Positions 4,409 through 28,477 of a DNA stretch of 64,000 nucleotides are shown piece by piece (the stretch's first letter is position 1; every line of letters begins with the position of its first letter). Under the pieces are notes generated by a model. The model had not been told where the DNA came from, did not search any database, and saw only the letters and a list, made by a program, of their open reading frames with translations. Source of the stretch: a phage; the sequence record PV467749.1, one strand, 5' to 3'. Position numbers and translations under genes: made by a program.

Positions 4409-4614
4409 AATTTACTCTTTATATCTTGAATTAAAAATCGAATCCATTCTTCAACATAATCTTCCTGATGGTTTGTGTTCAGTACAGCCAACATGCGGAT
4501 CTCTGCTCTTGCAACTTCAATTTCAGTTTTAGGAAGGTCTTTGCTGATATCCACCATTAAGTCCATGTATTTCAAGATAAGACCGTATGATTGGGTTCGT
4601 GTTATAGTTTTCAT
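4405..4614 (-). CDS. family-1 small protein (LNTNHQ variant)
   Basis: Motif VLNTNHQED; ATGA overlaps. Confidence 0.75.
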   Translation of the reverse strand: MKTITRTQSYGLILKYMDLMVDISKDLPKTEIEVARAEIRMLAVLNTNHQEDYVEEWIRFLIQDIKSKL

Positions 4615-4811
4615 TGTTTCCTCGTGGACAATATTTTATTTTTCAATGTATCCATATATTGAATCACCCATCTTTCCTGATAGTTAGTTCCCAAAGTAAT
4701 CAAAAGGTATAACTCCATTCGTTCTACGTGTGTGTCTGTATTATAAATCTTTGTGAAGTTTTTACGTAACAGTTCTTGATAATCTTCTTTATTTAAAATA
4801 CGCATTTTCAT
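4611..4811 (-). CDS. family-1 small protein (LGTNYQ motif)
   Basis: Motif TLGTNYQER; ATGA overlap. Confidence 0.75.
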   Translation of the reverse strand: MKMRILNKEDYQELLRKNFTKIYNTDTHVERMELYLLITLGTNYQERWVIQYMDTLKNKILSTRKQ

Positions 4812-5005: not shown

Positions 5006-5035
5006 AGGGACTCCATTAAAAATAATATCAATCCA

Positions 5036-5063
5036 ATAATATACGATTCATATAAAAAGTCAA
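5036..5063 (-). promoter_or_regulatory. sigma70-type promoter for the family-1 array
   Basis: TTGACT-N16-TATTAT on the minus strand, about 30 nt upstream of the ATG at 5005. Confidence 0.55.
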
Positions 5064-5254
5064 TAACATTTTATAAGTAATACCCCTTTATCGAAGTCGC
5101 TAAGGTTACCCGCCCTTTAGCCCCCTACGCATTTTGCCATAGTCCAATCCCTTTTTATTCATAAAAGTCAAGGGATTACCTATGCATTTTTTTAACGCTG
5201 AAGTTTAAAAATGCCTTGACTTTTTTATGATTCAGTACTAAATCCTTTTACGCA

Positions 5255-5464
5255 TTAATCCTTCGTTACGCTTACGATTATCTGTGTATCCCCATAGTCC
5301 TGCCATACTTCCACGCCAGCCGTCGCCCTGGTTAGTCGTGCTGTCATCTGCTTAATGGTCTTAGGCTTTAGTGGAACCTGTTGCAGTACTGTACGCATAG
5401 CACTATCGACGTTATCATGTACGCCTGCAATAGTGCCTAGGACGCTGTATACTGTATAGAACAT
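5255..5464 (-). CDS. hypothetical protein
   Basis: 69-aa ORF, SD AGGAGGG upstream; GGCCGC..GCGGCC stem-loop in the leader. Confidence 0.65.
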   Translation of the reverse strand: MFYTVYSVLGTIAGVHDNVDSAMRTVLQQVPLKPKTIKQMTARLTRATAGVEVWQDYGDTQIIVSVTKD

Positions 5465-6356: not shown

Positions 6357-6409
6357 TTTGAATCTCCTAACTTTGTGGGCCGTCGCACCATTGCCGCCCT
6401 ACGAGATAC

Positions 6410-7226: not shown

Positions 7227-7451
7227 TTAGATTAGATTATTGAGGCCGTCAATGGTAGACTCACCTTCTTCTTTCTCCCATTGTCGGTAGTACTTCCATG
7301 CTTCATGATAGGTGGCGATTAGTTCATCTTTTTGATCCTGGTTACATGCCAGTACTGAATCACGGTGAGCGGTGTTATAGATAGAATCGAATGATTTCTT
7401 CTCTTCTGCCAGGTTAGCTACTTCCCGCATCAGTTCATCAAAGTTAGCCAT
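7227..7451 (-). CDS. hypothetical protein
   Basis: 74-aa acidic ORF, SD AAGGAG. Confidence 0.7.
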   Translation of the reverse strand: MANFDELMREVANLAEEKKSFDSIYNTAHRDSVLACNQDQKDELIATYHEAWKYYRQWEKEEGESTIDGLNNLI

Positions 7452-7498
7452 TTTATTACTCCTTTTAGTGGGGGAGGATATCTCCCCCTATGCAAAAC

Positions 7499-7526
7499 AT
7501 TATACTTTGTTTTAGTTATTATGCAA
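7499..7526 (-). promoter_or_regulatory. promoter + 5' stem-loop cassette (PeSL-like)
   Basis: TTGCAT-N16-TATAAT, then GGGGGAGATATCCTCCCCC hairpin (7470-7488). Overlaps the stop of the upstream gene. Confidence 0.7.
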
Positions 7527-7782
7527 GTACTTTTTTCATATAAACATTAAATTCTACACCGCCGTAACCTTCCACGATGATATGTTTTGCGTTATCACGT
7601 TTGCACATAGTGAAACCGTTGTTGATGTGTTCTGAATTTTCCAGGGCGACATCACCGATAGCGGCACATACAGCACTAATAACAGTATTCCGCAAAGTAC
7701 TGGTATCATTGGCGGTCATAGTAGTTTGCAGTACTACGTTGTCGTATACGTGTGCATTGATAGTGATTTCGATAGTGTTCAT
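7519..7782 (-). CDS. hypothetical protein
   Basis: Start moved to MNTIEITI (SD AGGAG). The track N-terminus MFYIERGKWF.. is translated cassette sequence. Confidence 0.7.
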   Translation of the reverse strand: MNTIEITINAHVYDNVVLQTTMTANDTSTLRNTVISAVCAAIGDVALENSEHINNGFTMCKRDNAKHIIVEGYGGVEFNVYMKKVLA

Positions 7783-9354: not shown

Positions 9355-9939
9355 TTATCGTGTTACCTTACTTGCTGCCACATCACGCTTTTTATAGTAC
9401 TGATTCCAGATATTGCAGGTTAAACCGTAATCAAGTACTTTAATAAGGCCATTACGATCCTGGCCGATATTCTGTTTTCTGATATCTCTTATCGTTAGTG
9501 TTGATAATGTATCATCGACGTGTTGTAGTGCATCAGCAAAGCGGTGCTGGCGTTCGATTGCATTACGTTTAATATTGTACTTTAATTCATTGCACGCGTT
9601 TACGTGCTTCACACTACCTTTGCTTGCAGTACTCAACCGATCCATAACGATAAACATATTATCAGGATCGCATAAATGCATATGCACCTTTGCAAAGTAC
9701 TGTTTCAACTGAGGGCGGTCATAGTCTAAAAAATTCCATACCTTACATTCAGTTTCATTTTGTTCTACACCCGCATCACAATTCGCGACCTTAATCACTA
9801 ACCGATCATTTAAAGCGAAAACTATACGGGAAGAACCAGCACCGATGATCTCCAGGCCAGCTAACCGACAAGCTGAAAGGATCTCTTTGTTGGTTTCCAT
9901 TTCTGACAGTGTACGGATGAATTTAGTATAATTACGCAT
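9355..9939 (-). CDS. minimal protein-kinase-like protein
   Basis: Start at MRNYTKF (SD AAGGAG). IGAGSSRIVF (Gly loop), VIKV (Lys), DIRKQN (catalytic loop), LDYG (DFG-like); ends about 20 aa after DYG. Confidence 0.6.
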   Translation of the reverse strand: MRNYTKFIRTLSEMETNKEILSACRLAGLEIIGAGSSRIVFALNDRLVIKVANCDAGVEQNETECKVWNFLDYDRPQLKQYFAKVHMHLCDPDNMFIVMDRLSTASKGSVKHVNACNELKYNIKRNAIERQHRFADALQHVDDTLSTLTIRDIRKQNIGQDRNGLIKVLDYGLTCNIWNQYYKKRDVAASKVTR

Positions 9940-20832: not shown

Positions 20833-21093
20833 TCAATATTGTTTGTCGTCGTCTTCCTCGATGAATTGACCGACGAAATGATCTACTTTCGCTTTGAGGC
20901 TTTTATAATCTTCTTCTACTTCCTTTAAACGTTCCTGGTAGTATTCCAATGCTTCAAGATACGCCGCCTCAGCAGTTTTTGCACGCATGGCTAAATTCAT
21001 GCCACGCGTTTCATCAAATAGCCAATAACCATCGGTGCACTGGCTAATAGATAATGTCTTGCTTAGTGCTGTATAGCTAATTACTTTACTCAT
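20833..21093 (-). CDS. hypothetical protein (coiled-coil C-terminus)
   Basis: 86-aa ORF. Confidence 0.7.
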   Translation of the reverse strand: MSKVISYTALSKTLSISQCTDGYWLFDETRGMNLAMRAKTAEAAYLEALEYYQERLKEVEEDYKSLKAKVDHFVGQFIEEDDDKQY

Positions 21094-21480: not shown

Positions 21481-22092
21481 TTAATATTCGATTGATTCCA
21501 CTACGCCATCAATAACATTGAATTGATATTCGTTACCCTCAATCAGTGCAGTAATGTTTTCAGTAGTGAATTGATCCTCATATGCATTCTCTAAATCACG
21601 GTACAACTTACGAGATAATTCACGGATCGCATCAGTCAGTAAGTTTTCCAGGTCATCAGCAAGTGCCGCTTGTTTTACAGTTAAATCAGTGTAGCGAGTA
21701 TCAACGCAACCGCTTACCGTGTTTTCGTGTGCGTAGCGAGAGTGTGAACGTTCTACACTCATTGCCAAATCATCTTCATTCAACAAGTGACGGATTGAAC
21801 GATATTTCGTTAACGCCTTAACCTTGCGTAAAAACTTCTCAGCGTCAACGTGGTTAGTACTGATTGATGCACCGTCACCTTGCGACCAAAAACCACTGTA
21901 TTGCAATTCAGCTTCATCTATGCCGTATTCTGGTAGTACTGTTTCTTTATAGTACTCGATAACGCCCTCAGCAAAGAAATTATCCTCACATGAACGCTCA
22001 CGATCCCGAACCAGTTCGATAGCCGCCGTTTTTTGTTCTGCGTTCAGTTCAGAAAAAGCCATAACAAAAGTAGTAGTAGTGATAGTTTTCAT
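21481..22092 (-). CDS. conserved hypothetical protein (YSGFWSQGDGAS motif)
   Basis: 203-aa acidic ORF. The motif is reminiscent of plasmid/phage-borne families, but I cannot assign one. Confidence 0.8.
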   Translation of the reverse strand: MKTITTTTFVMAFSELNAEQKTAAIELVRDRERSCEDNFFAEGVIEYYKETVLPEYGIDEAELQYSGFWSQGDGASISTNHVDAEKFLRKVKALTKYRSIRHLLNEDDLAMSVERSHSRYAHENTVSGCVDTRYTDLTVKQAALADDLENLLTDAIRELSRKLYRDLENAYEDQFTTENITALIEGNEYQFNVIDGVVESIEY

Positions 22093-22106
22093 TTTGTAAC
22101 CCTCAT

Positions 22107-22298
22107 TCAGTAGTTGATGTAAGTATTATACGCTTTTAAAAACATTTGTCAAACTATTTTATCAGGGGAGTTTTTCGTGTGCCTTACTCCTGGGCTACTT
22201 AACGGGAAGTTACTTATTTCGTTCCCCGTCCTGATGTAAAACATTATACGCTTATTGAGATAGTTTGCAAGTACTTTTTAAAAATAGTTTTCAGTACT
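22107..22298 (-). repeat. ~190-bp dual-promoter unit with structured ~75-nt spacer (copy B)
   Basis: Near-identical to 12321..12510. P1 22243-22270 (TTGCAA-N16-TATAAT), P2 22125-22152 (TTGACA-N16-TATAAT). Confidence 0.75.
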
Positions 22299-22316
22299 GA
22301 ATAGTAAAAAAAAGTA

Positions 22317-22345
22317 TTGACAGCATTATCAAGTACTGGCATAAT
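22317..22345 (+). promoter_or_regulatory. plus-strand promoter, convergent with 22461..22489
   Basis: TTGACA-N17-CATAAT; box CCCACCGGGTGC at 22367-22378; no ORF. Confidence 0.6.
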
Positions 22346-22460
22346 ATACCCCATGACAACAGCTAACCCACCGGGTGCACAATTGTAACTATACTAAACT
22401 AATTTTTCTATAGATACACTCCCGCACCCTATGGGCTACGGCTTATCTGCCAATGAATAC

Positions 22461-22489
22461 ATTATGCCAGTACTGACAAAATAAGTCAA
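22461..22489 (-). promoter_or_regulatory. minus-strand promoter, convergent with 22317..22345
   Basis: TTGACT-N17-CATAAT; box (minus sense CCCATAGGGTGC) at 22424-22435. Confidence 0.6.
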
Positions 22490-22522
22490 TACCGGCAATT
22501 GTAAATTTTTCAAAAAATATGA

Positions 22523-22753
22523 TTATACTGCAATCGCGTCCAGGCTGTAATAATAATAAGTGCCGTATTGGTGTACTTTATTACCTTTTATTTCAGTACT
22601 GAATGAATCCGAACGATTTGCATATGATGTTAATTTAAAGTACTTTGATTTGCTGATACGTTGCCATACACCACAGATCCGCTGTAAGTAAGTAGTTTTA
22701 TTCGTGGTCGTATCTTTTACGGTTTTAACTTCAGTCATATACATATTAGTCAT
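22523..22753 (-). CDS. hypothetical protein
   Basis: 76-aa ORF, SD GGAG. Confidence 0.7.
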   Translation of the reverse strand: MTNMYMTEVKTVKDTTTNKTTYLQRICGVWQRISKSKYFKLTSYANRSDSFSTEIKGNKVHQYGTYYYYSLDAIAV

Positions 22754-22805
22754 TTTTATTACTCCAGGTTATAGGCGGGAAGAGTTCCCGCTCTCGATGT
22801 AAAAC

Positions 22806-22833
22806 ATTATACGCCTTTAAACATAGTTTGCAA
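22806..22833 (-). promoter_or_regulatory. promoter + 5' stem-loop cassette (PeSL-like)
   Basis: TTGCAA-N16-TATAAT + GAGCGGGAACTCTTCCCGCC hairpin. Confidence 0.7.
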
Positions 22834-22840
22834 GTACTTT

Positions 22841-23107
22841 TTATTCAAGTACTGCAATCTTTTTAGTACGGTACACGGTCACGCGGTTGCCCTTTCGGTC
22901 GAGCTTTATTTCTACCACTCGACGCGATACACTATCGGGACTTTTTAAGGCCGCTAACCAGTACTGTAATGATCTGGCGGTACTACGCTTTACAATGGCC
23001 CAACGTTTACCACGTTCCGATTGTACGCCCATATCTTTAAACGTTGCCCCGTCCTGGCGTGCGGCGATCCGAGCTTGTTCACGCGTCGCAAAATACTTAA
23101 TATTCAT
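22841..23107 (-). CDS. hypothetical protein, paralog of 10859..11254
   Basis: Start moved to MNIKYFATREQAR; shared FKDMG, KRWA, DRKGNRVTVY. Confidence 0.75.
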   Translation of the reverse strand: MNIKYFATREQARIAARQDGATFKDMGVQSERGKRWAIVKRSTARSLQYWLAALKSPDSVSRRVVEIKLDRKGNRVTVYRTKKIAVLE

Positions 23108-23195
23108 GCTGTTGCCCTTATCGTTGGTGTATGAATAAAACACTATTATAAAGTACTATCCCCGTGCAATAGTACTTTAAATAAATTCTATTCTA

Positions 23196-23435
23196 TTACA
23201 TTCCAACCATTGCCGCACGGATCGCAGTAGTGCTATATTTGAATCCGTCCGGTGTTTTATCTTGTCCAGTCTGTTCTAAAAATAACATCATATGACGGGC
23301 CGCATCATTGCGATTAGTGCTATCGTTAATAAAGTCCTGGGCCAACCGGTATAATGATTCATCGTTATTAATCCAAAGGCTTACATTCCAATGAGTTTTG
23401 TTTTTGTGACCTAAGAACATTTTTGATTTAGCCAT
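23196..23435 (-). CDS. hypothetical protein, paralog of 21151..21390
   Basis: Start moved to MAKSKMFLGHK (SD AGAGGA). Confidence 0.8.
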   Translation of the reverse strand: MAKSKMFLGHKNKTHWNVSLWINNDESLYRLAQDFINDSTNRNDAARHMMLFLEQTGQDKTPDGFKYSTTAIRAAMVGM

Positions 23436-23486
23436 TTTTTTAATCCTCTTATATAGTGGGGAACTATTCCCCACCTGATGTAAAAC

Positions 23487-23514
23487 ATTATACGCTTTTA
23501 AACTTAGTTTGCAA
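23487..23514 (-). promoter_or_regulatory. promoter + 5' stem-loop cassette (PeSL-like)
   Basis: TTGCAA-N16-TATAAT + GGTGGGGAATAGTTCCCCAC hairpin. Confidence 0.7.
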
Positions 23515-23528
23515 GTACTTTATTAAAC

Positions 23529-23891
23529 TTATTTGTAAATTTTGCCACTTTCTACCCATACCAGGAAACGAGGCATATTATCCCATGCATCTTGCTTTAA
23601 GTTTAAGCCGTGCAATTCCTCAGTTGTTGCCATGCCTGGGACTGGTTTACTATACACCGAGAATTTTTCGCCCATGTACTGATAAACCATCGTCAAATCA
23701 CTGGCGATCATCTTATGGATCATCGCATCAAGCATCACGGTCGCGGCGTATTGTTCACGCTTAAGCGGCAGCATTTTAATCAGTTCGCGGTATGCGTCAA
23801 TGTGAGTTTTAACCGTTGCCGCCGGAAGATCTTTCATCTCGTCGCGGAAGTTAACCAGGTTAGCAATAATTTTGGTGATTTGAGTCGCCAT
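23529..23891 (-). CDS. hypothetical protein
   Basis: Start moved to MATQITKII (120 aa); 47 upstream track residues are cassette read-through. Confidence 0.7.
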   Translation of the reverse strand: MATQITKIIANLVNFRDEMKDLPAATVKTHIDAYRELIKMLPLKREQYAATVMLDAMIHKMIASDLTMVYQYMGEKFSVYSKPVPGMATTEELHGLNLKQDAWDNMPRFLVWVESGKIYK

Positions 23892-23948
23892 CGTTTTAAT
23901 CTCTCTTAAAAGTGAGTTAGGAGCGTTTCCCCCGTCTCGATGTAAAAC

Positions 23949-23976
23949 ATTATACGCCTTTAAACATAGTTTACAA
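23949..23976 (-). promoter_or_regulatory. promoter + 5' stem-loop cassette (PeSL-like)
   Basis: TTGTAA-N16-TATAAT + GACGGGGGAAACGCTCC hairpin; leftmost-pointing promoter at the edge of the ORF-free region. Confidence 0.65.
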
Positions 23977-24199
23977 GTACTTTCTACAAATACTTTTAAA
24001 ATAGTTTTCTTTCTATATAGGGAAACTATCATTCAGTACTGAATCAACCAAATCACTACTACACCCCGTAAAACGGCCTCAATCGCATTCTAACGCATTA
24101 TTACACCTAAGCTATACATTTGCACCATTCTAATCATTCCAGTGCGTTACGGGCCGTTTAAACGCGTTAAATTATTTTCAATTATTTTGTTTTTAGGTA

Positions 24200-24227
24200 T
24201 TGACTCAGTACTAAAAAAGCGTATAAT
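24200..24227 (+). promoter_or_regulatory. plus-strand promoter, no ORF
   Basis: TTGACT-N16-TATAAT; box CCCCAGGGGGTGC at 24255-24267; an opposite-sense box at 24313-24325. Confidence 0.6.
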
Positions 24228-24415
24228 TACTACATAGACGCGAGAAAGCGGATACCCCAGGGGGTGCGGAATTGTGCCCAAAATTCAAGATATAAAAAAA
24301 GGATACACTCCCGCACCCTAGCAGGTAAACGCACTTTCTCAGTACTGAAATATAGTACCATAGTCCGGCCCAGGATAGCAAGCAAATTAATTAAAACTTT
24401 TTTGCTTCCAGGGTA

Positions 24416-24443
24416 TTGCTTTATTTTTTCAGTACTGTATAAT
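24416..24443 (+). promoter_or_regulatory. plus-strand promoter, no ORF
   Basis: TTGCTT-N16-TATAAT (TG-extended); box CCCACCGGGTGC at 24472-24483. Confidence 0.55.
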
Positions 24444-24540
24444 AGTTCCATCAAGTCGAGAAAGACTCAAGCCCACCGGGTGCATAGTTACGCCCAAAAT
24501 TCAGTACTGAAAAAATTTTTAAAAATATCCGTCCAGGTCG

Positions 24541-24569
24541 TTGACATTGCCCCCAGTTTATAAGATAAT
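24541..24569 (+). promoter_or_regulatory. plus-strand promoter reading into the TAGCCRTC iterons
   Basis: TTGACA-N17-GATAAT; GCGGGGAaactaTCCCCaCGC hairpin about 40 nt downstream. Confidence 0.6.
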
Positions 24570-24666
24570 GATTCCAGATTCAGAAAAATCTAACACCAGA
24601 TACTGCGGGGAAACTATCCCCACGCGGTAGGGGAACTATTGGAAAAAACAAAATAAAATTTTGATT

Positions 24667-24778
24667 TAGCCGTCTATACTTCCAGACGTGTAACCATCTA
24701 GCCGTTTAGCCGTCCAAACGTCTAGCCATCCAGCCATCCAGAAATCTAGCCGTTTAGCCGTCTAGATGGATAGCCATC
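24667..24778 (+). repeat. iteron cluster, 8 copies of TAGCCGTY / YAGCCATC
   Basis: Copies at 24667, 24699, 24707, 24723, 24731, 24747, 24755, 24771. Flanked by a CTTCCAGAC pair and RCCCAAAATYC repeats. Confidence 0.8.
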
Positions 24779-25180
24779 TTTACTTCCAGACTTCTGGAGG
24801 GCTAGACATATCTACGCCCAAAATCCATCCAGGGTAACTACACCCAAAATCCGTCAGTACTATACCATAGATCTATCTTTTGAAAGGGAGTATTCAGTAC
24901 TGCCATCATAGCCCTCACTATGTTACCCTAGGAGGATGAAGACTATCATGTAGTACTGAATACTGTTAGAGGGAATCCACCAGCTTGTGCTGGTGGCATA
25001 ATGCTTTAGATTAAAATCAGTACTGACACCATTCTGTTAATATCAGTACTGTTATTACGATTTTCATATGAGGTTCAAAAAGATGTACCACCACAGGAGG
25101 AACTATCTTTTCTGTACTGTCTCACGACAGGAGGTAGAGTAAATGAATTGTTCGCAGCAACTCATCTCTCTATGTAGAAC

Positions 25181-25208
25181 ATTATACAGTACTGAATCAT
25201 AATGTCAA
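25181..25208 (-). promoter_or_regulatory. orphan PeSL-type promoter (no gene downstream)
   Basis: TTGACA-N16-TATAAT with a GTTCTACATAGAGAG leader like the early-gene cassettes, but followed only by ORF-free DNA. Confidence 0.55.
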
Positions 25209-25486
25209 TAGCTTTCTTTCATTATTCAGTACTGATATTCTTGAGAACTACCCGACTACAAACATCATTATATCCCACAAATCATAAACGTCCCAACGTA
25301 AATTTCAACTTTCGAAGAACCAACTTTTATTTCATAGGTACTCCAAAATTTTTAGGATCGAGATTTAGGATGGAGTACTAACCAACTTTTTGCTGGAGCC
25401 TCAAGGGGTAATTGAATTTTACCCCGAAGGGTAAAAGGGTAATTGAAATTAAGGTGAAAGTAATAATTCAGTACTAATCATTGCGT

Positions 25487-25514
25487 GATTACTTTTGATT
25501 ACATTTGATGTAAT
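25487..25514 (+). repeat. three GATTAC-type hexamers phased at 10 bp
   Basis: GATTACttttGATTACatttGATGTAAT. Confidence 0.7.
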
Positions 25515-25726
25515 TTGCAAAATGGAAAAGGAGCTTGGAAACTACAAAGTACGGCAGACTTCCTCTGCCTACTTAGTGACATATCGACACCTTCAGTACT
25601 GAATACTTTTAGGGCAGTACTGAATCCTTCCCTAGCATTCTTGAGTAATCTTGTCTATAATAATCAGTACTGAATCATATATAATCATTCTGTGATTCTA
25701 CGGTGCTCATATAAATGTTTATATAT

Positions 25727-25752
25727 GATTACTTATGACTACATATGATTAC
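25727..25752 (+). repeat. three GATTAC-type hexamers phased at 10 bp (second cluster)
   Basis: GATTACttatGACTACatatGATTAC. Confidence 0.7.
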
Positions 25753-25875
25753 GGGGTTTAGCCTGGGGAGAATCCTAGTGATCGCATTTGTCCAGGCTGA
25801 ATTTTAACAATTCTTCTAATTGTTAAAGCCTGTCCAATGCTTTCCCTGCGGAGCTTCCCCTGTCTATATGTTGAA

Positions 25876-26082
25876 TTACTTCCTATATATAAGCATTAAC
25901 ATATAGTAGTACTGATTATGCTGTACATTCTCTTTAATATTATAAGGGTCTATAGCAATCTCGGTACATCTGTTAAATGCATATCTATTAAATGCCAGTA
26001 CTATTATAGATCTAATCCATGCTTGGTCAGTCGGTGGTAGTTTACTTATATAGTACTCTTTATAGTTTTTTATGTTCTGCAT
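25876..26082 (-). CDS. family-2 small protein
   Basis: MQNIKNYKEYYISKL..YYYMLMLIYRK; last gene of the array. Confidence 0.7.
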   Translation of the reverse strand: MQNIKNYKEYYISKLPPTDQAWIRSIIVLAFNRYAFNRCTEIAIDPYNIKENVQHNQYYYMLMLIYRK

Positions 26083-26093
26083 AGTATACCTTA

Positions 26094-26285
26094 TTATTTC
26101 AAAGTACCATATAGTACTCTTAATAGGAAGTAGTACGTATTAGAGATATCATTAGTAGTTAAAACAATCTTAGTACACATATTAAATTCGTATTGAGTCA
26201 TTGCCAGGGGGATTAAATTGTTAACCCATGCTTGTTCGTTTTCTTTGAGTTTACTTATATAGAAATCTTTATGTTCTTTATTCAT
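26094..26285 (-). CDS. family-2 small protein
   Basis: MNKEHKDFYISKL..YYFLLRVLYGTLK. Confidence 0.7.
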   Translation of the reverse strand: MNKEHKDFYISKLKENEQAWVNNLIPLAMTQYEFNMCTKIVLTTNDISNTYYFLLRVLYGTLK

Positions 26286-26487
26286 ATAGGAATAGTATAC
26301 CTATGATGCCGGAGTACATATTAGTACTGTTATTATTGTCGTTTGCGTTTAAGGTCATTTGAATACAATTATTGTAGCATAATCTGCCGAAATATGTATC
26401 AGTACTTAAAGGTGCTGTAGTCCTTAGAAACATTTGTTCTGTGGGGCTGAGGTGTTTGGAGTAGAATTCTTTATGTTCTTTATTCAT
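26278..26487 (-). CDS. family-2 small protein
   Basis: MNKEHKEFYSKHLSPTEQMFLR..; close to 26861..27067. Confidence 0.7.
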   Translation of the reverse strand: MNKEHKEFYSKHLSPTEQMFLRTTAPLSTDTYFGRLCYNNCIQMTLNANDNNNSTNMYSGIIGILFLYE

Positions 26488-26492
26488 ATTAG

Positions 26493-26678
26493 TTAGTGTC
26501 TGTATATAAGTAATAGTAAGAATACGTACTGCACCTGTTCATCTTTAGTATTGAGTACTGTACGTATTGCGTCATGGAACAAGAATATAGTACTTGGGTC
26601 ATTAGAATTTAAGGGGTTTACGGGGACGGCGTGTTTGTAGTTCCCTTTAACAAATTGTATATAGTATTCTCTATGCAT
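26493..26678 (-). CDS. family-2 small protein
   Basis: MHREYYIQFV..YVFLLLLIYRH. Confidence 0.7.
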   Translation of the reverse strand: MHREYYIQFVKGNYKHAVPVNPLNSNDPSTIFLFHDAIRTVLNTKDEQVQYVFLLLLIYRH

Positions 26679-26679
26679 A

Positions 26680-26868
26680 TCAGTACCTATATATTAGGGC
26701 GAGAATGTAGTACAGTTTATATGTATTATAATCTGGGTTGATAGCACATAGTGTGTGGTAGTGGAATTGTTTGGTATTTTTCTTATCCTTGATATCTATT
26801 GGGATTTGTGGTATAAGCATTTGGGAGTTTAGATCGAGATGGCTTAAGTAGAATTCTTTGTTATTCAT
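26680..26868 (-). CDS. family-2 small protein
   Basis: MNNKEFYLSHL..LYYILALIYRY. Confidence 0.7.
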   Translation of the reverse strand: MNNKEFYLSHLDLNSQMLIPQIPIDIKDKKNTKQFHYHTLCAINPDYNTYKLYYILALIYRY

Positions 26869-27067
26869 AGAAGAATATTAGTCCCATTACGCCTGAGTAT
26901 TGAATATTTTTGTTATTGTTTTCTAAAGCTTCTAGAGTAATACGTATACAATTATTAAAGCAATCTCTGGCGTGTGGTGTATCTAAACGTAAAGGTGATA
27001 CACTCCTTAGAAACATTTGTTCTGATGCACTGAGGTGTTTGGTGTAAAATTCTTTCTGTTCGTTCAT
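26861..27067 (-). CDS. family-2 small protein
   Basis: MNEQKEFYTKHLSASEQMFLR.. Confidence 0.7.
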   Translation of the reverse strand: MNEQKEFYTKHLSASEQMFLRSVSPLRLDTPHARDCFNNCIRITLEALENNNKNIQYSGVMGLIFFYE

Positions 27068-27077
27068 ATTGGCCTCT

Positions 27078-27266
27078 TTAGTACACGAAAGCTAGGTACA
27101 GTACATGATACAGTACTCGATGATAGCTATCAAAATCTAGTATACATGCTTTAGTGCACATAGTAAAGTACACTTTATCGTTTTGAGCATTGATACCGCG
27201 AGGTTTATCTAATAGATTAGTACTGAGGTACATTGGGAAATATTTTGTGTAGTATTCTTTATGCAT
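27078..27266 (-). CDS. family-2 small protein
   Basis: Start set at MHKEYYTKYF (the track adds 15 residues that overlap the upstream gene). Confidence 0.7.
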   Translation of the reverse strand: MHKEYYTKYFPMYLSTNLLDKPRGINAQNDKVYFTMCTKACILDFDSYHRVLYHVLYLAFVY

Positions 27267-27267
27267 A

Positions 27268-27450
27268 TTAGTACCTGAATATAAGTAGGATAGTGTTATA
27301 TAATTGGTCATAGCTACTACTATTTTCTATACTGCGTTCTATGCAATTATTGAATCCCAGTACTGCCAAATCGTTATCCAGGGGGACTTTATATCTGGCG
27401 TAGTGTTCAAATATACTGGGGAGAAATTGTGTGTAGTATTCTTTGTGCAT
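27268..27450 (-). CDS. family-2 small protein
   Basis: MHKEYYTQFL..LYNTILLIFRY. Confidence 0.7.
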   Translation of the reverse strand: MHKEYYTQFLPSIFEHYARYKVPLDNDLAVLGFNNCIERSIENSSSYDQLYNTILLIFRY

Positions 27451-27451
27451 A

Positions 27452-27643
27452 TTAGTACTTATATATTAGTAAAAGGATGTGATACAGTACTCTATTATAG
27501 TCCTCAATATATATCGAGGATTTAGTGCACTGAATGAAGTAGTCTTTTTCGTAGTCTTTTTCTATACTCAATTGTTTTGTTGGTACAAGGTGTTGGAGAT
27601 ACATTGGGAGTTTCTCTATGTAGTATTCTTTGTGGTTATTCAT
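27452..27643 (-). CDS. family-2 small protein
   Basis: MNNHKEYYIEKL..LYHILLLIYKY. Confidence 0.7.
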   Translation of the reverse strand: MNNHKEYYIEKLPMYLQHLVPTKQLSIEKDYEKDYFIQCTKSSIYIEDYNRVLYHILLLIYKY

Positions 27644-27651
27644 ATTATGTG

Positions 27652-27825
27652 TTATTTCGTGAAAACAAGGGTTAGTACTGCATAGTACAAGTCATACGTA
27701 TCTTTAGGGTTAATAGCACCTTTAATACATTCTTTCATTACTTCATTATAGATAATTTTAGTACTGAATGTATTGGATGTTACTATATCGGAATTAAGGT
27801 ACGAGAGGTAGAATTCTTTATACAT
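27652..27825 (-). CDS. family-2 small protein
   Basis: Start set at MYKEFYLSYL (57 aa); 8-nt overlap with the stop of 27818..28477. Confidence 0.65.
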   Translation of the reverse strand: MYKEFYLSYLNSDIVTSNTFSTKIIYNEVMKECIKGAINPKDTYDLYYAVLTLVFTK

Positions 27826-28477
27826 AGTTTGAAATATACGTAATGAGGTGATGAAATTTCTTATCAGTACTGATAAGTTCCTGTACATGTTTTGTTAGTT
27901 TGTACGCGTTTTTATAGAGTCCTGGATTATCGATTACAGTACTGTACATGAATTCTTCTTCCTCGGATAATTCTTTGTGTTCTAGTTCTTTGAGGAATTG
28001 CAGTACTGTATCAGTTTCGTTAGTACGTTGCTTTTGGAAGAAGTGCATGTTATCGTGTATTTTTTCTGAACCCATGCAGTACATATCGCCGATTTGGAAT
28101 TGTGCAGTACTGATATCATGGGTGCTATTACAATTCCCGAAGAAGTATACATTCCCGAAAGATAGAATTATAGTGCACGGGATATTATCCATGTGTATAT
28201 AGATAGATGCATTCTTTAGTGCTTTTGTGCTGGTATTAGTACTCAATACTTTTAAATCAGTATTATAGATATTAATAAAAGCAAGAGCTATATTATTTTT
28301 CTTCAAGTACGATTTGAGGTTCTTAGATACGAGAACATTTCTGGATTTTTTCTTTTTATTTCGTTTCTTTAGTACACACGGGTCGTAAGTATATGCTGGT
28401 GTAAAAGATTCTGCTTGAATACTGTTGAGGTATTTAAAGTGCTTAAGGTATTGTTTGCTGTGTGCATTAAGTTTCAT
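27818..28477 (-). CDS. hypothetical 219-aa protein, distant paralog of 48973..49623 and 62828..63400
   Basis: Basic N-terminus with a family-2-like KQYLKHFKYL. Shared late motif ELSEEEEFMYSTVI vs KLPEEQLFQYSLI vs KLNEEEYFQESIV. Confidence 0.75.
   Translation of the reverse strand: MKLNAHSKQYLKHFKYLNSIQAESFTPAYTYDPCVLKKRNKKKKSRNVLVSKNLKSYLKKNNIALAFINIYNTDLKVLSTNTSTKALKNASIYIHMDNIPCTIILSFGNVYFFGNCNSTHDISTAQFQIGDMYCMGSEKIHDNMHFFQKQRTNETDTVLQFLKELEHKELSEEEEFMYSTVIDNPGLYKNAYKLTKHVQELISTDKKFHHLITYISNYV

Follow-up and report, generated by a model that had tools for sequence, protein, structure and literature searches.

The 64,000-nucleotide stretch of phage DNA analysed here (sequence record PV467749.1; hereafter the window) belongs to an Asteriusvirus-like jumbo coliphage, kin of PBECO4, 121Q, and SP27, with 42 phage records matching it at 80–98% identity (most above 90%) and the closest relatives having E. 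coli and Salmonella as hosts. Between minus-strand early-type genes lies a 1.7 kb region free of open reading frames (ORFs), in which the annotation of relatives places short hypothetical ORFs only, or none, and this region holds a tandem array of 8-bp units close to a physical end of the genome. With moderate confidence, and on the evidence of its sequence, we regard the array as a super-sized operator for the host methionine repressor MetJ in complex with S-adenosylmethionine (MetJ·SAM), and we propose that it works in cis at the genome end, as a roadblock or checkpoint. Scans of the whole window for tRNAs and Rfam families found nothing. The array and its surroundings are as follows:

24150–25870: ORF-free, repeat-rich control region of 1.7 kb (from the ORF list), spanning the terminal-repeat boundary and holding the array
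24668–24779: core array of 14 metbox-like units; units 1–7 are AGCCGTCT ATACTTCC AGACGTGT AACCATCT AGCCGTTT AGCCGTCC AAACGTCT and units 8–14 are AGCCATCC AGCCATCC AGAAATCT AGCCGTTT AGCCGTCT AGATGGAT AGCCATCT
24780–24811: degenerate 3' extension keeping the array register, ttacttcc AGACTTCT ggagggct AGACATAT

The original prediction, made from the letters of the window, described eight copies of an 8-bp iteron within 112 bp, all in one orientation, and all eight are present (TAGCCGTC at 24667, 24707, and 24755; TAGCCGTT at 24699 and 24747; TAGCCATC at 24723 and 24771; CAGCCATC at 24731). This count was too low, however, with the supposed spacers caaacgtc, cagaaatc, and tagatgga being degenerate copies in the array register, and the array therefore consists of 14 contiguous units, head-to-tail and strictly in phase, with two further good units up to 24811. 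Eleven of the 14 core units are distinct in sequence, and Tandem Repeats Finder reports a period of 8 with 12.4 copies and super-periods of 16, 24, and 32 bp. Two copies of CTTCCAGAC, described earlier as bracketing the array, do occur (24679–24687, one base before the predicted 24680, and 24783–24791), however they lie 104 bp apart, equal to 13 units, and are themselves in-phase array units; their role as delimiting brackets was rejected. Searching the rest of the sequence for the 8-mer, as had been proposed, showed all five occurrences of TAGCCGTY in the 64 kb to lie within the array, with the broader TAGCCRTY matching 19 times compared with 6.1 expected. Every one of the 12 TAGCCRTY matches outside the array reads TAGCCAT[TC], and the one compared with an ORF translation, at 23429, is the reverse complement of the ATGGCTA start-codon context of a minus-strand gene.

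Shifting the register of the 8-bp units by one base yields AGCCGTCT, AAACGTCT, AGACGTGT, AGCCATCT, and AGACTTCT, each identical to the metbox consensus AGACGTCT at six or seven of eight positions. MetJ is a ribbon-helix-helix dimer with SAM as its co-repressor, and acts cooperatively along tandem 8-bp metboxes. Each box takes one dimer, and dimers on neighbouring boxes polymerise around the DNA, with SAM raising the affinity, and strict 8-bp head-to-tail phasing is the known binding mode of the protein (PMC2775130).

The likeness to metboxes was scored with the half-site matrix that Augustus and Spicer published for MetJ (PMC3228920) and with their thresholds, which ask for at least two adjacent in-phase boxes, a total of at least the consensus score of 12.58 bits, and at least 3.145 bits (a quarter of the consensus) per box. 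The array is the single qualifying site in the window (24668–24779, 14 boxes, 102.8 bits), with the runner-up run reaching 10.1 bits, below the threshold. All 14 core units score at least 3.145 bits, as do two of the four units of the 3' extension (8.63 and 8.57 bits). The fit is confined to one register, which totals +89 bits compared with −73 to −369 bits in the other seven. Among 300 first-order Markov sequences of 64 kb, the best metbox run reached at most 21.6 bits and four boxes, and a chance origin of the fit is excluded. As a positive control, the same scan over 8.5 kb of E. coli K-12 ranked the metJ/metB intergenic region first (four boxes, 31.2 bits) and the region just upstream of metF second (four boxes, 24.9 bits), the box count of the array being ~3 fold that of either operator.

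The resemblance extends beyond the window. A frequency matrix built from 180 units of 11 phages gives a correlation of r = 0.90 against the metbox matrix in one rotation, and none of the other seven exceeds 0.03. This phage matrix also mirrors the minor metbox preferences for G at position 1 and C at position 8, and the lack of T at position 3 and of A at position 6, whilst the probability that a random 8-mer tandem unit, in any rotation, matches AGACGTCT at seven or more of eight positions is 0.003. Compared with the MetJ operators of E. coli and other Gammaproteobacteria, the array has the same AGACGTCT-type 8-bp unit, contiguous head-to-tail boxes, a similar average score (7.3 bits per box, against 5–11 bits in chromosomal operators), and identical box words, namely AGCCGTCC (also in the metR/metE operator), AGCCATCT and ATCCATCC (occurring as AGCCATCT..ATCCATCC in that of metK), and AAACGTCT. 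Unit profile, adjacency, and total score are thus those of a metbox operator, and the hosts include a MetJ-encoding species, metJ being present in E. coli K-12. The phage arrays differ in length (14–28 boxes compared with 2–5 in the operators compared), in lying on the terminal repeats of virulent phages rather than beside methionine or SAM genes, in standing off the −35/−10 region of a promoter, and in an excess of C at position 3; their binding of MetJ is predicted.

A sensitive blastn search with the array found it in 96 phage records, with hosts in Escherichia (36), Vibrio (33), Erwinia (7), Aeromonas (5), Salmonella (4), Providencia (4), Pectobacterium (2), Cronobacter (2), Serratia (2), and Xanthomonas (1). 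These records fall into three groups that are unrelated to one another: RaK2-like jumbo myoviruses (Asteriusvirus, Mimasvirus, Eneladusvirus), T5-like Demerecviridae (PR1, Pontus, JSF10, AhSzq-1, PVo5, pVp-1), and T7-like Ermolevavirus (PGT2, phiKT). T5 itself has no 8-bp array. At every relative locus retrieved (13 phages), 8–28 boxes stand in phase and fit the matrix, the boxes that pass being:

Sharanji 12; SHEFM2K 8; fEgEco12 15
EJP2 21 of 24; CBB 14 of 15; XbC2 14 of 16; pEa12 14 of 17
Pontus 16 of 17; JSF10 16 of 19; PVo5 8 of 8; PGT2 9 of 9
PR1 9 of 9 (88.5 bits); AhSzq-1 28 of 28 (221 bits)

In EJP2, which is 69% identical in the array region, the unit words have turned over with the metbox fit retained, and selection therefore appears to act on motif and phase rather than on the exact sequence. 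A blastn search of the array against 5,426 complete E. coli genomes and 72,556 plasmids returned no match, and the array was therefore not copied from host, prophage, or plasmid DNA.

That the array is a functionless minisatellite produced by replication slippage is most improbable. Slippage would account for the array length of close relatives, which differs by whole boxes (8, 12, 14, and 15), and monotonous 8-bp microsatellites of similar sequence do occur in many bacterial phyla, however the 11 distinct units among 14 all still fit the matrix, conservation is uneven between positions and follows the MetJ pattern, and the array is kept in phase, always near the repeat boundary, in genera and families between which the flanking DNA has no detectable similarity. 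A degenerate four-box pattern searched against IMG/VR gave 54 loci, many of them (ATCC)n microsatellites barely above the box threshold and others real arrays of 9–36 boxes. A stricter four-box pattern was run over 185,579 bacterial and archaeal genomes, and among the matches listed, many phyla were represented and almost all were monotonous, with one to three distinct units. With the matches spread in this way as microsatellites, the scan is no test of taxonomic restriction, and a match to the pattern is not diagnostic by itself.

Microsatellites of the types (AGATGTTT)n, (AGCCGTCC)n, and (GGATGTTT)n in GTDB contigs of Bacteroidota, Gemmatimonadales, Chloroflexi, Streptomyces, and Acinetobacter satisfy the degenerate pattern. 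On the viral side, an IMG/VR contig of 119,931 bp (T5-sized) carries an in-phase metbox-like array at 4513–4784 (34 boxes, 272 bits, seven distinct units), and another uncultivated viral contig has 36 in-phase boxes of AGATGTCT/AGATGTCC at 7257–7544.

The position of the array was set against the genome termini of the relatives. In fEgEco12, PhageTerm and restriction digests established direct terminal repeats of 20,993 bp (PMC13070987), with position 1 of that genome (5'-AGTAGGCAGAGGAAGTCTGCC) being the reverse complement of window 25553–25573 and position 20993 mapping to window 5103. Records ELP-22, CRJP21, and E9.1 begin at the base of window 25573 by their match coordinates, those of BF17 and vB_Ec-M-J begin within ~10 bases of it, and the terminal repeat of Sharanji measures 20,668 bp. 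The resulting features are:

5103–25573: direct terminal repeat of ~20.5 kb, placed by homology to the fEgEco12 boundaries 1 and 20993
25573: terminal-repeat boundary, corresponding to the left physical genome end, 4 nt from a hairpin GGCAGA-N5-TCTGCC (25553–25569)
25486–25519 and 25715–25752, plus strand: two clusters of TGATTAC repeats with a 10-bp period, flanking the terminus (repeat search and Tandem Repeats Finder)

The array thereby lies 795–906 bp inside the left physical end, a terminus placed by homology. Four of the 16 TGATTAC copies in the window, all on one strand, fall in the two terminus-flanking clusters, and no such clusters appeared in the terminal sequences examined from XbC2 and pEa12. 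The TGATTAC repeats and the terminus hairpin are candidate terminase recognition elements, with the repeats being better candidates for phage-specific packaging-recognition sites than the array.

The other terminal-repeat boundary, at 5103, lies in a short intergenic region, near which the GC content rises from ~0.32–0.35 to ~0.40 (window ~5010–5290); neither a metbox run nor a TGATTAC cluster is present in that interval. Just outside the terminal repeat, at 25876–27888 and on to ~30000, lie at least ten tandem paralogous minus-strand ORFs of 60–78 amino acids, which share the pattern M[NH]KE[HQ]KEFY...L..[IL][FY]R[YHK] and are all annotated as hypothetical in the relatives.

Closeness to a terminus recurs throughout the carriers. 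The array always lies inside the terminal repeat, 0.04–0.9 kb from a known boundary or the record start, at ~650–900 bp from the left end in all jumbo genera (~0.8 kb in Asteriusvirus; 0.65–0.8 kb from the record start in CBB, XbC2, and pEa12), 770 bp from the annotated repeat boundary in PR1, and ~40 bp from the left end in PGT2. Such constancy speaks for a possible though unlikely alternative, namely that the protein on the units is encoded by the phage, or is a host protein distinct from MetJ, with an 8-bp tandem mode (another ribbon-helix-helix protein, for example), and that it works at the genome end, for instance to recruit terminase, set the terminal-repeat cut, or shield the end. An upstream CGCRGnAGGGG element, together with the conserved asymmetry of the units, suggests a mobile module of common descent, the Xanthomonas phage XbC2 retains the array on a host genus without MetJ, and host factors assist packaging elsewhere, as does IHF at lambda cosB. 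However, one and the same unit profile occurs in jumbo myoviruses, T5-like siphoviruses, and T7-like podoviruses, groups that presumably package their DNA with unrelated proteins. Jumbo and T5-like phages carry the array in opposite orientations with respect to the boundary, and its distance varies from 40 to 900 bp. Furthermore, the cut site itself is flanked by phage-specific repeats (TGATTAC with the hairpin here, DRD in T5), the unit profile mirrors the MetJ matrix down to its minor preferences, and tblastn of MetJ and of T5 A1, A2, dmp, and ORF007 against the window, including the entire terminal repeat, gave nothing significant. The recurrence of the profile, the flipped orientation, and the distance from the cut likewise lend no clear support to the small-subunit terminase sites of the original prediction as stated.

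Phage-specific elements thus vary by lineage whilst the 8-mer profile stays constant, which is the pattern expected of a conserved host-protein site, and MetJ·SAM is accordingly the most likely ligand.

Transcription signals surround the array in the window:

24541–24569, plus strand: sigma-70-type promoter TTGACA-17-GATAAT, 11 of 12 consensus positions (promoter scan), reading into the array
24601–24629, plus strand: conserved leader hairpin TACTGCGGGGAAACTATCCCCACGCGGTA, between this promoter and the array
24630–24667, plus strand: conserved block GGGGAACTATTGGAAAAAA (from the alignment), followed by an A/T-rich spacer (24640–24667) up to the first box
25181–25208, minus strand: perfect-consensus sigma-70 promoter TTGACA-16-TATAAT (promoter scan), ~365 bp from the genome end
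24300–24319, minus strand: terminator-like hairpin and T-run for leftward transcripts past the array (terminator scan)

The plus-strand promoter at 24541 had been predicted to read directly into the repeats, and it does so, with the array beginning 127 bp downstream of its −35 hexamer and ~90 nt into its transcript (start site inferred from the −10 position). EJP2 has the identical arrangement, 127 bp upstream of its array, and promoter-like hexamers align with this promoter in CBB, XbC2, pEa12, and fENko-Kae01. The 25208 promoter is convergent with it, ~0.4 kb from the array, which stands between the two, and has a counterpart in EJP2, at the same distance, and another in fEgEco12. An RNAalifold analysis of the leader hairpin in six jumbo phages from four lineages found five stem pairs with compensatory changes, together with a U.G pair that does not vary among the six, which is suggestive, though with six sequences not proof, of conservation as an RNA structure. 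In the T5-like phages Pontus, AhSzq-1, and PR1, the arrays are preceded by the CGCRGnAGGGG element, which is related to the conserved block.

These signals bear on the very unlikely case of a function at the RNA level, in which a repeat-bearing non-coding RNA from the 24541 or 25208 promoter would sequester an RNA-binding protein or form a structured early RNA. Strong promoters do enter the array from both sides, the covariation and the U.G pair of the leader point to RNA, the array orientation relative to the leader is conserved, and the terminator-like site would end a leftward non-coding transcript of ~880 nt. However, no sigma-70-type promoter (at least 10 of 12 positions) occurs within ~570 bp of the T5-like or T7-like arrays, the units are near-palindromic as DNA, as expected for a dimeric DNA binder, and there is neither an Rfam match nor a known RNA-binder motif in all units.

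Other motifs occur around these promoters. The palindrome TCAGTACTG has 58 sites in the window compared with 0.67 expected, is densest at 6400–30500 (example sites are 24033, 24339, 24429, 24501, 25017, 25187, 25226, 25593, and 25664), and often lies in the spacer or just upstream of the −10 of sigma-70-like promoters (..CAGTACTGTATAAT, TTGACTCAGTACT..); it may be the operator of an early-promoter regulator. AGTACT-rich motifs also crowd the terminal regions of XbC2, pEa12, fENko-Kae01, and the T5-like AhSzq-1. Two paralogous promoter-leader units lie at 24200–24330 and 24416–24510 (TTGACT-16-TATAAT at 24200; TTGCTT-17-TGTATAAT at 24416), both giving ..GAGAAAG..GGGTGC..GCCCAAAATTCA, and the motif ACRCCCAAAATYC appears on both sides of the array (near 24275, 24491, 24815, and 24841) as well as in pEa12, XbC2, and fENko-Kae01. 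These units and this motif may represent small early RNAs or another binding site.

The original prediction also offered replication-initiator and partition-protein binding, and its broader idea of a dense, one-orientation array of short protein-binding sites stands, with the array fed by a promoter and 0.8 kb from the terminus. The iteron reading was not borne out, with the units being 8 bp and contiguous rather than 17–22 bp on helical phase, no ORF in 24150–25870, and the A/T-rich spacer at 24640–24667 as the only feature of an iteron origin present. Scans of 24000–26000 for DnaA boxes and Fur boxes found none. Partition sites are similarly unsupported as stated, since no partition genes were noticed in the ORF lists and annotation tables, in which no targeted search was made, and the relatives are described as virulent.

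A role in a replication origin, whether as initiator iterons or in a T4-type origin primed by transcription, in which the 24541 promoter, the A/T-rich spacer, and the downstream block would yield a stable R-loop primer, is quite improbable. The cumulative GC skew has its minimum at 24–26 kb (~−0.1 to the left, ~+0.2 to the right) although the genes on both sides (21481–24032 and 25876–28477) lie on the minus strand, a conserved promoter, hairpin, and A/T-rich stretch stand directly upstream, DnaA boxes adjoin the T5-like arrays, and RaK2-like phages have T4-like replisomes (PMC5259590). Against this, the contiguous 8-bp units are unlike iterons, neither an initiator gene nor a DnaA box is present in 24000–26000, the T5 origins map near the genome centre (preprint 10.1101/866236), and the PGT2 array lies ~40 bp from the genome end. 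The switch in skew falls exactly on the terminal-repeat boundary, where the gene family changes as well, making it explicable without an origin, and the minimum was set aside as an origin signal as not decisive.

Reading the array as a MetJ·SAM operator agrees with the distribution of its carriers. MetJ is confined to Enterobacterales, Pasteurellales, Vibrionales, Aeromonadales, and Alteromonadales (PMC3228920), and the hosts of the array phages belong to Enterobacterales, Vibrionales, and Aeromonadales, within these five orders, with XbC2 as the sole exception. A tblastn search of E. coli MetJ against 50,697 phage records matched only three bacterial contaminant records, and the array phages therefore do not bring their own MetJ.

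Several observations weigh against MetJ. Position 3 is C in 52% of phage units compared with 10% of chromosomal metboxes, which is the chief departure from the metbox, and the units retain an asymmetry from phage to phage (AGCC to one side, GTCT to the other), whereas a symmetric dimer needs none. Monotonous 8-bp microsatellites fit the degenerate four-box pattern in many phyla without MetJ, and metbox resemblance alone can thus arise without the protein. XbC2, isolated on Xanthomonas and placed in Mimasvirus (a genus with GAP32 and CBB as its named species), has an intact array with 14 of 16 units passing, whilst Xanthomonas lies outside the five MetJ orders. Additionally, the array controls no methionine gene and overlaps no promoter, and the promoters that flank it are a feature of the jumbo phages, not seen beside T5-like or T7-like arrays. 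The genome-end strategy is the same in T5 and in the Munch/fENko-Kae01 lineage but does without the array, which is hence dispensable or replaceable, and with only ~3 independent phage lineages carrying it, the host-range argument is statistically weak. The assignment of MetJ as the binder is drawn from sequence, and we infer it on that footing.

If MetJ is the ligand, approximately 14–16 MetJ·SAM dimers would, in a SAM-replete cell, coat 112–144 bp of terminal-repeat DNA as an unbroken spiral of protein, 0.8 kb in from the genome end. The coat would begin ~90 nt downstream of the early promoter at 24541, between it and the convergent 25208 promoter. In the simplest mechanism, it would be a roadblock or checkpoint in cis to RNA polymerase crossing the end of the terminal repeat, and possibly also to the machinery of DNA entry or packaging. 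The many boxes of moderate affinity may give a switch-like response, and early events at the genome end would in this way be coupled to the SAM status of the host. Closeness to the repeat boundary is the feature common to all carriers, and a role in DNA entry or packaging is hence possible. As a secondary possibility, the array may titrate MetJ as a decoy, derepressing methionine and SAM synthesis. T5 degrades host DNA early, with which a decoy is hard to reconcile, and a decoy accounts less well for the terminal position.

Among known systems, the closest counterpart in position is Untranslated Repeat Region 3 of T5, which holds the candidate injection stop signal (iss). Both regions are ORF-free and repeat-dense over ~1.2–1.7 kb, overrun the terminal-repeat boundary by ~0.3 kb, have phage-specific direct repeats flanking the boundary, and contain clusters of host-factor sites. 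In the T5-like phages PR1, Pontus, JSF10, and AhSzq-1, the metbox-like array lies in the counterpart of this very region, between DnaA boxes and T5-type DRD repeats. However, T5 is without the array, the window is without DnaA boxes in 24000–26000 and without the A1/A2 genes, the module is inverted relative to the boundary, and two-step injection is a feature of T5, with the jumbo phages compared by sequence.

Host-factor sites are found in the packaging regions of other phages, with an IHF site (I1) in lambda cosB and stimulation by IHF/HU at P1 pac. The array resembles these in being a site for a host DNA-binding protein (as proposed) near a terminase cut and beside phage-specific repeats, but differs in being a 14-box polymerisation array 0.8 kb from the cut rather than one bending site. 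T7 carries short-repeat arrays, SRL and SRR (reported by Dunn and Studier in 1983), beside its terminal repeat, resembling in this the PGT2 array ~40 bp from the left end, although the T7 arrays reportedly have a different unit and irregular spacing. ParG and omega are ribbon-helix-helix proteins that bind arrays phased at 7–8 bp. Iterons and the ParR, ParG, and omega centromeres likewise have many direct repeats in one orientation with cooperative protein binding; the array, in contrast, has no adjacent rep gene, no par genes were noticed, its unit profile is that of MetJ, and its carriers are lytic phages.

The Klebsiella phage fENko-Kae01 and the Salmonella Munch-like phages form a sister jumbo-phage lineage that retains the same promoter, hairpin, and CGCGGTAGG...AATGGAAAAA block, whilst the whole 22 kb of the left end lacks a metbox run. 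Where the array would be, fENko-Kae01 carries at 690–810 repeats resembling Fur boxes at 14–16 of 19 positions of the consensus (for example GAGAATAATAATGATTATC, 16 of 19), a fit reached by none of 5000 local shuffles. Similarly, T5 has Fur-like boxes in its iss region at 9540–9725 (for example TGAGAATCATTATCA), significant against local shuffles and near the calculated shear point of first-step transfer. This exchange of array for Fur-like repeats is seen in one lineage, and the notion of host-repressor arrays as interchangeable functional modules at these genome ends is a lead rather than a finding. In its widest form, which we put forward as a tentative and rather doubtful proposal, virulent phages with long terminal repeats would place, in the untranslated region by the genome end, interchangeable arrays for host metabolic repressors that polymerise along DNA, as state-dependent roadblocks gating entry, early transcription, or packaging, the proteins implicated being MetJ·SAM in the window, Fur through the Fur-like boxes of the Munch/fENko-Kae01 lineage and the T5 iss, and DnaA through the boxes of T5-like phages.

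A literature search found no description of metbox arrays in phage genomes, and the comparative study of T5-like iss regions by Davison mentions neither MetJ nor Fur. If MetJ binds, the array would be by far the largest natural MetJ operator, and a lytic phage would be seen to wire a host metabolite sensor, that for SAM, into the biology of its genome end. For phage therapy and engineering, it offers a small non-coding element that may make infection depend on the methionine and SAM status of the host. As a cis element shared at terminal repeats, it links jumbo RaK2-like, T5-like, and some T7-like phages, and makes the decades-old question of the T5 injection stop signal experimentally approachable with metJ, fur, and dnaA hosts. 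Should the interchangeable arrays prove real, this long-unexplained signal would gain a molecular identity.

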